The notes beneath the pieces are model-generated. The model was not told where the DNA came from. It was given only the letters and a program-made list of their open reading frames with translations, and made no database searches. Source: a phage. Taken from it: 64,000 nt of DNA. The stretch lies in the NCBI GenBank assembly GCA_012813795.1, contig GCA_012813795.1_4087.1; one strand, given 5' to 3'. Numbering within the stretch: the stretch's first letter is position 1; the number at the start of each line of letters is the position of its first letter. The translations under genes were made by a program, and so were the position numbers. Positions 3,482-23,385 of the stretch are shown here, piece by piece.

Positions 3482-4294
3482 TTAAATTACATAGGGTTTA
3501 TAGTAATGAATCTCATTTGCTATTGCAGTGAAAACTTTCTTATTAAATCTTTCACCATAATCACGAAGTGATTCACCTTCTACGCTTTCAATAAAGTAAT
3601 TATATACTGGTAGTCGTGCACTGTCAATACCTATAAACGATTTCATGTAAATTTGTACTAAACGATTCATACCTGAATTTAAACATTCAACATCAAAGTG
3701 CTTGATACCTTTGTCTAAGTGCTTGAATGCATTGATGATACCACGCTTGAAATCACGCTCCATAGTACTGAATAGATTCTCAGGAAACACTGTAATCGGA
3801 GACATGGATTTAAGAATGTATGTATCTTTTGCATTCTTGATGTACTCAATGAAGCAGTAGTTTACATTAGGCTCAATTGAACGGTCTGCATTATGATACC
3901 AGTACTTAAACTCGCTGTACTCTGCGAACTTATGCTGGCGTAAGGCATTACAATCCTCACACAGTGCAGTCATGTTCTCTTTATCATTACCACCCTGAAG
4001 ACAGTCAAGTACATTATGGTCTAACGTCATGCGTACAAGGCGTTTCCCTTTAAGTACATAAGGTCTGAATTTATAACGGTCTTTAGTACTGTGCTTATGT
4101 AAAGTGAATACTACATTGGATTCACCACAACAATCACATTTAAAGCCGTCACGAGACATTACATGAATGAGTTTGCGAGTATTAGGTCCAAACTCAGATT
4201 TAGTAATATTATCCACAATTTCTGATGGTTGGTAATATTTTGAATTCAGTCGAATCAATTCATCGATAGTACTCATTTTAGATTTCCTCTTCAC
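3482..4294 (-). CDS. HNH-family homing endonuclease-like protein
   Basis: CDCCG...TLDHNV...N...CEDCN HNH/zinc motif. Confidence 0.65.
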   Translation of the reverse strand: MKRKSKMSTIDELIRLNSKYYQPSEIVDNITKSEFGPNTRKLIHVMSRDGFKCDCCGESNVVFTLHKHSTKDRYKFRPYVLKGKRLVRMTLDHNVLDCLQGGNDKENMTALCEDCNALRQHKFAEYSEFKYWYHNADRSIEPNVNYCFIEYIKNAKDTYILKSMSPITVFPENLFSTMERDFKRGIINAFKHLDKGIKHFDVECLNSGMNRLVQIYMKSFIGIDSARLPVYNYFIESVEGESLRDYGERFNKKVFTAIANEIHYYKPYVI

Positions 4295-4502
4295 TGCATT
4301 CGGTGATTACTTTTTTAACCTCTATAACTCTTACTAAATGATACCCGCACCTATGGTTGAAATTAAACATGTTTACTAATGCATCAGCTTCTGTTTTTGC
4401 CCTAAATTGGAGATTATATATGTGCATAGTTTCATCGAGTGAGGCTTCACCTTTGCTATTGAAAACAATTTTACAAACTTCAAACCTTACTCGATAAATC
4501 AT
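4278..4502 (-). CDS. hypothetical protein
   Basis: 74-aa ORF. Confidence 0.45.
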   Translation of the reverse strand: MIYRVRFEVCKIVFNSKGEASLDETMHIYNLQFRAKTEADALVNMFNFNHRCGYHLVRVIEVKKVITECSEEEI

Positions 4503-4708
4503 TGAGTTTGTCCTACAATAAATTTCGCTTTAATATCACTTTTGTAACACCACATTTGTTCTTCACTAACTGTCATCCAAGAATTTTTGTTTACTTGTTC
4601 GTATGTACTATCACGTACAGAAAAACATTGGTTTAATGAATTCATAGGGGTAATTTGTACACCGGATTGCATTGAAAGAGCAACAATTAAAAAGATTGTA
4701 GTATTCAT
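4499..4708 (-). CDS. hypothetical secreted protein
   Basis: N-terminal signal-peptide-like segment. Confidence 0.45.
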   Translation of the reverse strand: MNTTIFLIVALSMQSGVQITPMNSLNQCFSVRDSTYEQVNKNSWMTVSEEQMWCYKSDIKAKFIVGQTQ

Positions 4709-4789
4709 TGAATGTTCCTTAATAGTTAGTCATCCATCTCTTCGAGATGTCTGTTCGCTTCTAATACTACGTATTCTACGCGAATGATT

Positions 4790-5320
4790 AATAACTGTCA
4801 AGGACTTTTAATATTGACGGGATTTGAGGAAGGGATTTTTCTTCCCCCCGCTGGGAGGGGAATTTGACGCTGATGGTATCAGAGCTATTGCATTGAAGAT
4901 TACTCTTAATGAGTACGAAAGCGGGTCATCCTGTTTCTCTCTACTTCAGTTTCATATGACGGTCTACACTTTTAAACATAGTGTATCTTCATTAAGTATC
5001 TATGCAATCAAATACTTAATGTGAGTACTCAAATTTTGGACGCAACTTTCCTGTACAAAATTTGATAACTCTCCCTTAGATAATTCGTAAGGTGTTATCC
5101 TTATATGTCTATCTAGGAACCACCAGCCATCCTAACGTGGTTCTTTATAGTGCCGCATTGCCGTGAGGGGTTCATAATATGCCCACATCTGACGGGTTTC
5201 TTCTGCACTTCGCACTGCTGGACTGCTCAACTGCCCTCTACATTTTCGAGTGGATCAGGTTCATGTCATCCATGCCAACAGAATTGTACAATATCATTGT
5301 ATCATGAACATCCATTTTGT
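4790..5320. ncRNA. GC-rich, ORF-poor, hairpin-rich block; candidate structured RNA or cis element
   Basis: Local GC clearly above flanks; multiple stem-loops (4826-4870, 5117-5144); no convincing ORF on either strand; closed by a bidirectional terminator. Confidence 0.3.
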
Positions 5321-5323
5321 CCC

Positions 5324-5358
5324 ATAAAAAAAGGGCTGACCTAAGTCAACCCTTTTTC
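5324..5358. terminator. bidirectional intrinsic terminator
   Basis: A-run, hairpin agggctgacc-taa-gtcaaccct, T-run. Confidence 0.6.
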
Positions 5359-5359
5359 T

Positions 5360-6322
5360 TTAGAAATCTTCGTATTCGTACCCTTTTTCAAGTACTATTT
5401 TTTTAAGCTTTTGAATAGCTTCACTATATTTTCGGTGCACAGATGAACGGGACTTAACAATGTTTCCTTTATCATCAACATATCCATTATCAGAAATTTC
5501 ACGAAGGGTTTCTGCTTTGTAATCCCCAAGACCATGAACACGCATGATAATTTCTCGTTCTTTAGTACTCAATTCGTCAATGATTTCTGTGATTGCATAA
5601 CGTAATGGATTACAAATGCTATCAACATTAAGGTTATAATCACGAGCAGATGAACTCAGAATATCCCCAAGGGTTCCGTCTGAATCTGAACCCAGTTGTG
5701 CATCAAGAGTCGTATATGCATTCTGGTATAACAAACAGTTCTTAACGTGCTGAAGCTCGATACCAGTACTCTCAGAGATTAATTCTGGTGTTGGTCGCTT
5801 ACCGTGTTCACGTTGATATGATTCATTAAATCGACGTACTTGGATGTTATGAACGCTCATATAACGTGGTAAGTACACCATGTAATTTGCATCTGAACTT
5901 TCATTATACATAGTCATATAAACGGACGTTGTTGCATATGTAATGAATTTGACATTCTTACTAAGATCAAAGGTTTTAAGTGCTCGCATAAAACCTTCTA
6001 CGCCATATGCAATTTTATCTTCAAACGGAATATAACATGTACACTTTGAAGCAACGTCAACAATCATACCATAGTTGTAACGAAGTAATAGGTCAGTATT
6101 CTTTTTTACATTAATCCCAGCACGAATCTCTTCTATGATAGATTCATTAGTTACACCTGCTGGACGTTTAATACTGATATTACTTTTACTACGAACTTTA
6201 TGTGGAATATCATCTTCAATAACTTCTGATGGTTCAATTGCTTCCAATGGATTGACTTCTTCATTCGCAAAACATTCATCCAGTACTTCTTCGGAAATTG
6301 CGTTTAAGTCTAGTTTCTTCAC
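5360..6322 (-). CDS. sigma-70 family RNA polymerase sigma factor
   Basis: Region 2-like (DLLLRYNYGMIVDVASK...) and region 4 HTH-like (ETLREISDNGYV...SRSSVHRKYSEAIQKLKK) segments; GTG start with AGGAG SD. Confidence 0.6.
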   Translation of the reverse strand: MKKLDLNAISEEVLDECFANEEVNPLEAIEPSEVIEDDIPHKVRSKSNISIKRPAGVTNESIIEEIRAGINVKKNTDLLLRYNYGMIVDVASKCTCYIPFEDKIAYGVEGFMRALKTFDLSKNVKFITYATTSVYMTMYNESSDANYMVYLPRYMSVHNIQVRRFNESYQREHGKRPTPELISESTGIELQHVKNCLLYQNAYTTLDAQLGSDSDGTLGDILSSSARDYNLNVDSICNPLRYAITEIIDELSTKEREIIMRVHGLGDYKAETLREISDNGYVDDKGNIVKSRSSVHRKYSEAIQKLKKIVLEKGYEYEDF

Positions 6323-18696: not shown

Positions 18697-19465
<769 letters not shown>

Positions 19466-19468
19466 ACA

Positions 19469-19601
<133 letters not shown>

Positions 19602-19602
19602 A

Positions 19603-19702
<100 letters not shown>

Positions 19703-19746
19703 ATAGGCACATACGGGTCTGCTTTTAAGCTACTGATTCGGGAATC

Positions 19747-19792
<46 letters not shown>

Positions 19793-19799
19793 CGTTCTT

Positions 19800-20018
<219 letters not shown>

Positions 20019-20027
20019 TAATACCCT

Positions 20028-20429
20028 TTAGTAGTTTAAGTCAGCGGCGTTGAACACACCGAGTGAAGTCTTACCACGTAGTTTAGGGGAAATGACATAT
20101 TTTGTCAATGTCTTTTTACCGTACCAGTACTCGAAATCTTTTTCTTCTACATACGGATTAGGGAAATCCCATTTGCGTTCTTTATGAATTTGCTTGGCCT
20201 GGACTTGAAGCTTTTCAACTTCATCTGGTGGTACAGTATCTACATTATTAAACTGCATGTACATACCTTTTAACCCATCAAGAATTAATTTTTCAGTTTC
20301 TTTAACTAATGTAATCTTTTCGATTCCAGTACTGATATTCATGTAGTCATCTACATAACCATTCCAGATAACAATCTCTGGATTACCTTCGATTCCCTGA
20401 AGCATCTTGATCAAGTCATTCTTTTTCAT
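20028..20429 (-). CDS. hypothetical protein
   Basis: 133-aa ORF. Confidence 0.55.
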   Translation of the reverse strand: MKKNDLIKMLQGIEGNPEIVIWNGYVDDYMNISTGIEKITLVKETEKLILDGLKGMYMQFNNVDTVPPDEVEKLQVQAKQIHKERKWDFPNPYVEEKDFEYWYGKKTLTKYVISPKLRGKTSLGVFNAADLNY

Positions 20430-20437
20430 TTGAATTC

Positions 20438-22078
<1,641 letters not shown>

Positions 22079-22263
22079 ATCACCAACTTTAATTAAAAAA
22101 ATGGATGGTGACGCTTTTAAACGCCGCTGTTAATTCAGCTTTATAACCACCCGTTTTAACTTGCCTTTCGGCTACCTTGACGTGGGGCGTACAGGCTACT
22201 AAAAGCAACTTCTGTAAACATATTTCCACGCCTTACCATTTTCATTATATCAGTACTTTTATC

Positions 22264-23385
<1,122 letters not shown>

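Follow-up and report, generated by a model that had tools for sequence, protein, structure and literature searches.

We analysed a stretch of phage DNA of 64,000 nucleotides (nt) (GenBank assembly GCA_012813795.1, contig GCA_012813795.1_4087.1; hereafter the window), and propose, with a probability that we put at roughly 80%, that its minus strand at about 4814–5324 is a self-contained gene for a large and highly structured noncoding RNA (ncRNA). By all comparisons made, this RNA probably represents a new family and a new class of large structured RNA. The transcript would run leftward from about 5289 and would contain at least a dozen helices and four pseudoknots arranged around near-invariant single-stranded strings. 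A first-pass annotation, made from the letters of the window alone, had marked 4790–5358 as a GC-rich block poor in open reading frames (ORFs) and dense in hairpins, and one of its candidates was a structured ncRNA, either a small RNA (sRNA) or an intron-like remnant. A structured ncRNA has strong support from its promoter and terminator, from the four pseudoknots and from 60 covarying pairs out of 75. An sRNA does not fit, the predicted length being about 430–480 nt, and neither does an intron remnant, which is discussed among the alternatives.

Conservation in relatives, whose absence the first-pass annotation had named as part of what would refute its proposal, was found in 71 records of Rak2-like jumbo phages: a sensitive blastn search with the core of the element hit 269 places in these records, mostly four per record and several with five (some of the latter have terminal repeats of ~20 kb; PMC13070987). 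Every phage record with the element is a genome of jumbo size, and the hosts belong to Escherichia, Salmonella, Klebsiella, Erwinia, Serratia, Pectobacterium, Cronobacter, Yersinia and Xanthomonas. At most places there is no annotation; others lie under small hypothetical ORFs, and in phage UE-S1 there is a "repeat_region" feature. In this region the window shares 99.9% identity with Escherichia phage A4 (Asteriusvirus, 355.5 kb) and about 93% with phages 121Q, PBECO4, G17 and phAPEC6.

Because the window holds one copy only (blastn with word size 7 found no second one in it), the paralogs were located in A4, its closest relative; the A4 sequence examined was the record outside 263001–313999, and the window presumably covers the rest. 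A4 has four copies, at about 65, 126, 206 and 321 kb, all lying in gaps of 0.65–0.9 kb and in one orientation, which is also that of most genes. They align with the window copy over the full length at 60–68% identity, conserved blocks being split by indels of the size of hairpins. Both A4 and RaK2 have paralog c2 next to dam and a cytidyltransferase gene, and the proteins encoded on either side are orthologous; paralog c3 stands between endonuclease VII and a baseplate hub gene in both A4 and Salmonella phage 7t3. The paralogs are thus syntenic across genera, and therefore the duplication is ancient and each copy has been kept. Recently acquired foreign DNA, which had also been considered in the first pass, does not agree with a locus that is syntenic and conserved across genera.

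The fold is supported by covariation across related phages, an analysis that had been recommended with the initial proposal. RNAalifold, run on 20 sequences, gave 71 pairs, with compensatory double changes in 43; the model was then refined from the alignments themselves and from a scan of every pair of columns for covarying stacks. In an alignment of 25 sequences the refined model has 84 pairs with 97.2% canonical cells, and double changes occur in 57 of these pairs; its covariation score of 0.507 compares with 0.178 for shuffled alignments (0 of 500 as high) and with 0.05–0.08 when the pairing partners are slid. When the alignment was extended to 28 sequences, taking in the divergent RaK2, XaC1, XbC2, Kaldavass and 7t3 as well as a copy from an E. 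coli island, 75 pairs with 97.4% canonical cells were scored, and compensatory double changes were present in 60 of them (score 0.556; shuffled 0.184, again 0 of 500 as high; slid partners 0.055–0.091). Pairwise identity in a set of 30 copies ranges from 55 to 100%. The stable stem-loops noticed in the first pass are accordingly present beyond chance, and compensatory changes keep the hairpins in relatives. Wobble cells in the modelled pairs amount to 169 G-U or U-G versus 22 A-C or C-A, and therefore the minus strand of the window is the strand of the folded RNA; this strand call rests on the wobble asymmetry together with the promoter and the terminator. The features are collected in Table 1.

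Table 1. Features of the RNA gene and its immediate surroundings, in window coordinates
Feature	Position	Strand	Remarks
Structured RNA body	4864..5289	-	From predicted start to end of Pm/R1, about 426 nt; about 476 nt down to 4814; from nhmmer, alignments and covariation
Hairpin Pa	5234..5253	-	Near-invariant loop GAAAAUGUA; 5/5 pairs covary; 99.3% of cells paired
Helix Pb	5226-5212	-	Fold model
Pc/Pd domain	5149..5209	-	Pc 5205-5209 with 5149-5153; Pd 5192-5195 with 5161-5164; 100% paired
Hairpin Pe	5117..5143	-	5143-5138 with 5122-5117; 6/6 pairs covary
Pseudoknot PK1	Pe loop 5132-5129 with 5081-5078	-	3/4 pairs with double changes
Helix Pf	5103-5099 with 5092-5088	-	Fold model
Motif UAAGGGAG	5071..5078	-	Directly 3' of PK1; AAGGGA core invariant in 28/28 copies
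Hairpin Pg	5023..5071	-	Variable length; 4/4 pairs covary
Hairpin Ph, 13 bp	4990..5021	-	11/13 pairs with double changes
Pseudoknot PK2	Ph loop 5003-5008 with 4887-4892	-	5/6 pairs with double changes
Knotted core	4894..4960	-	Pj, PK3, PK4 and Pl; covariation helices
Helix Pj	4956-4960 with 4925-4929	-	Knotted core
Pseudoknot PK3	4944-4948 with 4894-4898	-	Knotted core
Pseudoknot PK4	4937-4941 with 4917-4921	-	Knotted core
Helix Pl	4911-4915 with 4901-4905	-	Knotted core
Helix Pm (GAYGM..KCGUC) and repeat R1	4864..4880	-	Read from alignments; Pm at 4880-4866
Hairpin Po	4841..4862	-	C-run, short loop, near-invariant G6 run 4849-4844; 90.5% paired
Tail CAAAUCCCGUCAA	4814..4826	-	Conserved; holds direct-repeat hexamer R2 CGUCAA (4819-4814)
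Predicted promoter of RNA gene	5296..5324	-	-35-like TGGGACA 5324-5318, 16-nt spacer, extended -10 TGATACAAT 5304-5296
Terminator of sigma-factor gene	5325..5357	-	Hairpin GGGCTGAC-CTAA-GTCAACCC at 5333-5352; outside RNA gene
Separate sigma-70 promoter TTGACA-17-TAGAAT	4773..4801	-	11/12 matches; for 69-aa ORF 4499-4708; outside RNA family

The variable parts of the molecule change in the manner of a structured RNA. In the Pc/Pd domain, conserved internal-loop strands lie on either side of a variable apical domain, and in some copies (alignment rows L018 and L011) the Pd apex is swapped for CCG-UUCG-CGG; hairpin Pg is likewise swapped for a short hairpin capped by GAAA or UUAG in rows L025 and L018. 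Such replacement of variable domains by minimal capped hairpins is a classic signature of RNA structure. The long-range pairings change in concert as well. PK2 reads AUUGCAU/AUGCAAU, UUCAUAU/AUAUGAA, AUUGUAU/AUACAAU and AUCGAAU/AUUCGAU in the four A4 paralogs, and PK4 is GAGAG/CUUUC in most copies, AGAAG/CUUCU in XbC2, GGAAG/CUUCC in XaC1 and AGGGG/CCUCU in RaK2. Pj, PK3 and PK4 interleave, which gives a knotted core around the strings AUAGAGAGAAACAG (4931–4944) and ACCCGCUUUCG (4916–4926); both strings are kept in most copies, divergence being found mainly in RaK2, XbC2, Kaldavass and XaC1. Helix Pm is compensatory between a GAUGC/GCGUC group and a GACGA/UCGUC group of copies, and is imperfect in the window copy. 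A helix closing the 5' and 3' ends (GAUG with CGUC) has no covariation support in the alignments.

Past Pm, the family shows an optional terminator hairpin, the highly conserved Po, and a tail of the form CAAAUCYCGUCAR. Po is without covariation support because it varies on one side only, its sequence being highly conserved. The hexamer CGUCAA occurs at 4869–4864 (R1, in the 3' strand of Pm) and again in the tail (R2), so that the two repeats flank Po, and R1 equals R2 in 28 of the 28 copies: CGUCAA twice, CGUCAG twice, or, in RaK2, CUUCAA twice. A complementary partner of these CGUCAR repeats was searched for inside the RNA, and neither a partner nor covariation support was found. That the two hexamers change together points to recognition of both by a single factor, and the identical hexamers around Po would then be its recognition or processing sites; the factor could be a processing nuclease, the active site of the RNA itself, or an RNA- or DNA-binding protein. 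Po and R2 may be members of the mature RNA. Read on the other strand, the hexamers are TTGACG or CTGACG. Phage CBB (locus L012, 6601–6628, minus) has a promoter-like pair CTGACG-16-TATCAT antisense to the RNA and overlapping R2 and Po; the equivalent in the window is at about 4814–4845 on the plus strand, and the −10 in Asteriusvirus is weaker (TTTCAT or TTTCTT). Judging from these motifs, antisense transcription across R2 and Po is possible.

The promoter listed in Table 1 was found as GGGACA-16-TACAAT with TG, and it predicts a transcription start near 5289. Copies whose upstream stretch was captured have, at a fixed upstream distance and in the minus-strand sense, a promoter of the form (T)G(G/A)(G/A)AC(A/G)-N16-18-TGnTATAAT; it is thus a predicted sigma-70 promoter with an extended −10 and a conserved position. 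It resembles the promoter class "TGAAACG + TATA" reported for phages CBB and GAP32 (PMC5259590). In most copies of the family an intrinsic terminator, the hairpin Pn followed by U6, lies about 430–540 nt downstream of the promoter. Pn is absent from the window copy, the c2 type, and the copies of XbC2, Kaldavass and XaC1; without it, the transcript of the window copy may read through Po and the second CGUCAA into the next transcription unit. That unit has a near-consensus promoter of its own (4773–4801) directly 3' of the cassette, which is not conserved at that position in the paralogs, and therefore the RNA cassette is bracketed by its own promoter and that of the next unit. In c2-type copies (A4, L005 15083–15170; 121Q, L023 2818–2900) a hairpin GGUGAC..GUCACCUUUUUUU followed by U7–10 stands between the −10 and the RNA body, and this could be an attenuator or the terminator of a different promoter arrangement.

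At the other end, the hairpin at 5333–5352 is followed by U7 on the minus strand (an A7 run) and by T5 on the plus strand, and could act both ways, as had been proposed when it was called a bidirectional terminator closing the block. It belongs to the upstream sigma-factor gene, however, and does not close the element. This hairpin was read directly from the sequence, while a simple terminator scan did not list it; the weak sub-threshold Rfam matches there are all terminator-type 3' ends of sRNAs, and the orthologous site is an annotated terminator in phages UE-S1 and G17.

The element occupies most of an intergenic gap, 4709–5359, between a 69-amino-acid (aa) ORF (4499–4708, minus) and the sigma-70-family gene (5360–6322, minus; 320 aa), for which the annotation of relatives agrees with the earlier identification. 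Its elevated GC content is confirmed: 42.2% for the core (4814–5289) and 40.6% for 4790–5358, against a mean of 34.5% over the window, the core being at the 99.9th percentile of windows of equal size, where tRNA regions alone are comparable. The absence of a credible ORF on the gene-bearing minus strand likewise holds, since the longest stop-free run has 45 codons and the longest ORFs have 31–32 aa. In the 28 homologous copies the longest ORFs range from 20 to 130 aa and shift in position; because they differ in both position and length, there is no conserved ORF in the element, and no reading frame is kept across the 28 copies. Several GenBank records (OR699181–OR699188, OR699282, PQ330092, MK773491 and PQ464595) have two to six small "hypothetical protein" coding sequences over the RNA gene; these lack conservation and are probably annotation artefacts.

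The RNA was compared with known families using the 4227 covariance models of Rfam 15. At gathering thresholds the whole window gave only five tRNAs, all elsewhere, so that the Rfam/Infernal scan, also recommended in the first pass, assigns no family inside the element. At E ≤ 10 the window copy gave only terminator-like sub-threshold matches and noise, and at E ≤ 5 the 11 loci with other copies gave nothing inside the element. The models for bacterial and archaeal RNase P were not matched by the window copy or by the 11 loci, nor were those for ROOL, GOLLD, OLE, raiA and HEARO, with which the likeness is one of general character (large, ornate and phage-associated). ARAGORN found no transfer-messenger RNA (tmRNA), with tRNA-like ends and a tag frame, in the window. 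In the literature searched, including the papers on CBB, PA5oct and fEgEco12 and on comparative genomics of jumbo phages, the element is not described.

Several known RNAs nevertheless deserve a closer comparison. Group I introns, RNase P RNA and tmRNA are of comparable size and also have long-range pseudoknots and near-invariant single-stranded strings, but the present RNA differs in its helix order and has no exons, tRNA-like ends or tag ORF. The string ACAGAGCAACCCGCUUUCG superficially resembles the CR-IV string of RNase P, ACAGAACCCGGCUUA, although no RNase P model is matched. An upstream strand of the RNase P type, GAAAG..GGG, complementary to CCCGCUUU was not found on reading the alignments; the downstream GYGGG in Po could pair with CCCGC. 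ROOL and GOLLD RNAs, which are Rfam families and have reportedly been studied by cryo-electron microscopy (bioRxiv 10.1101/2024.12.08.627333), resemble the present RNA in being 500–800 nt long, with many helices, pseudoknot-type covariation and independent genes in phages or prophages. They come from Firmicutes and from rumen and lake metagenomes, whereas the present RNA is found in phages of Enterobacterales and Xanthomonas, occurs in each genome as about four diverged copies and shows no association with tRNA genes. Some "pseudoknot" pairs of ROOL and GOLLD reportedly proved to be intermolecular, in homo-oligomeric cages; by analogy, it is equally possible that the PK2 pairing is intermolecular. 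The pRNA of phi29 is another structured RNA encoded by phage, with loop-loop pairs that covary and are intermolecular, but it has 120–174 nt, is single-copy and is limited to phi29-like phages, and the present RNA has no Rfam match; we know of no use of RNA in packaging motors of the T4 type.

The nearest experimental precedent is in PA5oct, a phage of the same broad clade, in which the intergenic and ORF-free long noncoding RNAs (lncRNAs) ncRNA001–004, of 236–619 nt, were defined by RNA-seq, two of them being highly expressed throughout infection (PMC7318152); neither a structure nor covariation is reported for these lncRNAs. An nhmmer search found no homology to these lncRNAs but for one weak match of 50 nt to a C/G hairpin at the 3' end of ncRNA004. 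This hairpin (L050, 972–1020), a C-run and G-run pair UUCCUUCCCAAACGGGGAGGAA, is weakly Po-like, with E = 0.002.

The cassette is also found outside jumbo phages. An exact-motif scan of GTDB genomes matched one bacterium, Citrobacter amalonaticus, in which the cassette is directly downstream of a large serine recombinase gene; beyond it come a 165-aa ORF and genes for a CI-type S24 repressor and a Ner-like regulator. The mobile element (L048, 1845–6024) has its insertion site beside ppdD and hofB, and a metagenome contig (L041, 595–5300) has the same module at another site, ybhA/modC. Among 5426 complete E. coli genomes, two have a copy with 78% identity; in strain LR-29-1 it lies in an unannotated gap of 1.4 kb within an island of 10 kb (L113, 15997–26341) beside ffs, whose genes include DUF4326, DUF488, dual-OB and ParB-like ones. 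No plasmid among those searched carries the element, and the matches in IMG/VR and metagenomes are all Rak2-like contigs or islands of the Citrobacter or E. coli type. A relaxed IMG/VR scan (GACCGT-N14-26-GAGARAAACAG) gave 61 new loci, which we rejected as chance matches, and six GC-rich metagenome matches to a stricter motif were rejected as unrelated REP-like repeats. A secreted protein of 118 aa is common to the Citrobacter element and the E. coli island. A Pfam search of neighbouring ORFs and a tblastn search of A4 with the proteins of the island and the prophage-like element revealed no conserved protein partner except DUF4326, a protein common to the E. coli island and A4. As no protein travels with the RNA across these contexts, it would work alone or with a host component.

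We suggest on this basis a role in trans for the RNA, which would be either a ribozyme or the core around which a ribonucleoprotein or an RNA assembly is built; the grounds are its complexity, its near-invariant unpaired strings, its independence of neighbouring genes and the lack of a co-encoded protein partner. Since no protein gene goes with it from one context to the next, it would probably act on, or together with, a component of the host that Gammaproteobacteria share. A more specific proposal can be made only tentatively: that this is a new class of large catalytic or self-assembling RNA, with about four specialised paralogs, traded among mobile elements, whose knotted core (AUAGAGAGAAACAG...ACCCGCUUUCG) might be an active site, and in which the CGUCAR hexamers might be its own processing or recognition sites, releasing or presenting Po, or the PK2-type pairs might link a multimer.

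Several points weigh against the reading of the locus as a gene for such an RNA. The shuffle control ignores phylogeny, and the covariation scores are more safely compared with the slid-partner control, in which relatedness is preserved. Folding energy does not separate the strands, either for the alignment (−158 versus −159 kcal/mol) or for the single sequence, where the excess is modest (z = −2.4 for the minus strand and −2.3 for the plus strand). The alignments give poor resolution for helices P0, Pi and Pm and for the Pd apex, and shifts of register prevent a clean scoring of them. The window copy is without the terminator hairpin, and its 3' boundary is uncertain; for every member of the family the transcription start, the 3' end and the stability are predictions from sequence. 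That the RNA is a ribozyme or ribonucleoprotein with a role in trans is argued from its complexity and context.

The most serious rival, which we nevertheless regard as improbable, is an RNA-primed replication origin. The transcript would then form a persistent R-loop at the G6/C-rich Po and the CGUCAR (TTGACG) repeats would be iteron-like, giving several origins to a genome of 350 kb and a portable origin to small mobile elements. It would suit the spread of the copies round A4, the near-invariant G6 run, the two direct repeats that co-vary as iterons would, the lack of a terminator ahead of Po in some copies including that of the window, and the presence of the cassette in integrative elements; moreover, these phages have a T4-like replisome and RNase H, and the promoter class is reported upstream of DNA-synthesis genes in CBB (PMC5259590). 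ColE1 RNA II and T4 oriF/oriG likewise combine a sigma-70 or middle-type promoter with a transcript of a few hundred nt and a G-rich segment near its 3' end, and T4-type genomes have several ori-transcript sites. These known primers, however, have no conserved core of multiple pseudoknots, and a primer RNA needs neither four pseudoknots nor near-invariant single-stranded strings of 11–14 nt in its middle. Most copies of the present RNA have a strong intrinsic terminator upstream of Po and so mostly end before the G-run, and the GC skew of A4, on an assembly that is approximate since the window and A4 are not identical, is without a switch at c1, c2 and c4. The shared orientation of the copies is uninformative here, since it is that of the majority of genes.

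We consider it quite unlikely that each copy is a cis-regulatory leader, riboswitch-like or an attenuator, for the gene downstream. Three of the four A4 copies are upstream of, and co-oriented with, small genes, the window copy lacks its own terminator, and c2-type copies have their hairpin and U-run right after the promoter. Against this, the genes downstream of the different paralogs bear no relation to one another, and the gene that c3 faces is convergent. A terminator closes most copies, and after the window copy the next ORF has a strong promoter to itself; with its four pseudoknots and about 450 nt the RNA also goes far beyond known leaders, and no cis-regulatory family of Rfam was matched.

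Less likely still is a self-splicing intron that is degenerate or contains no ORF, or a mobile ribozyme of another kind that came to occupy intergenic sites by spreading. The size and the pseudoknotted fold are intron-like, the element is present in unrelated mobile elements, and genes of the homing-endonuclease type stand beside several copies, in TH47 even between promoter and RNA body; such genes, however, are to be expected beside any highly conserved sequence. No model of group I or II introns was matched at E ≤ 10 by the window copy or at E ≤ 5 by the 11 other loci. Every copy is intergenic with its own promoter, that of the window lying after the stop codon and terminator of the sigma gene, and no interrupted gene or exon continuity was found; the paralogs, being ancient and syntenic, have not spread recently.

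A repeat acting as DNA (for packaging, recombination or an array of protein-binding sites), akin to the replication or packaging cis-site listed in the first pass, or a set of small unannotated protein genes, with the RNA having no role, is largely refuted and has next to no chance, because compensatory changes keep the pairing in 60 of 75 pairs, an invariant G-U would be an A-C mismatch on the other strand or in a DNA cruciform (169 versus 22 cells), and the ORFs vary in position and length with indels that are not multiples of three, even though UE-S1 labels part of the element as repeat_region and several records annotate small hypothetical ORFs over it.

Genes of the homing type were seen near several copies. 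TH47 has, between the RNA promoter and the RNA body (L119, 912–1556, minus), a homing-endonuclease-like ORF of 214 aa with the motif YxxWxxMxxRC; HNH genes are near the A4 copies c2 (A4_397 and A4_402) and c4 (A4_508), and endonuclease VII adjoins c3. tRNA genes are homing targets of T4 SegB, and by analogy the conserved RNA genes may be homing targets. In the window, a 270-aa ORF of HNH type (3482–4294, minus) lies ~500 nt downstream of the RNA gene; ~520 nt of it are absent from A4 (record 321757–322245, L120) and present in 121Q and G17, so that a likely homing endonuclease gene shows a presence/absence polymorphism. The window is collinear with A4 over A4 314000–325723 at 97–98% identity, and because A4 is without these ~520 nt, the window comes from a close relative of A4 and not from A4 itself. 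The 69-aa ORF, taken for a secreted-protein gene in the first pass, has a hydrophobic N-terminus and no Pfam match. Five tRNA genes (Thr-TGT, Asn-GTT, Met-CAT, Ser-ACT and Ser-TGA) are clustered at 19131–23260 on the minus strand, the Ser-ACT anticodon call being unusual.

Large RNAs of bacteria and phages with conserved structure of this tertiary type are rare, the examples being RNase P, self-splicing introns, tmRNA, OLE, GOLLD/ROOL and HEARO/omega RNAs, and those among them with known roles are ribozymes, RNA guides or parts of RNA-protein machines. The comparative support for the present candidate for a new RNA class is unusually clean, with its four pseudoknots and with compensation in 60 of 75 pairs. 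Genome annotation is corrected as well, since several records leave gaps of ~0.6 kb or fill them with spurious small ORFs. The carriers include the culturable E. coli phages 121Q, PBECO4, A4, G17 and phAPEC6, which gives direct genetic and biochemical access to the RNA. That the Rak2-like phages have retained it fourfold and in synteny throughout their radiation suggests an important role in jumbo-phage infection, and its passage into integrative elements points to a portable function for which no co-encoded protein is needed.

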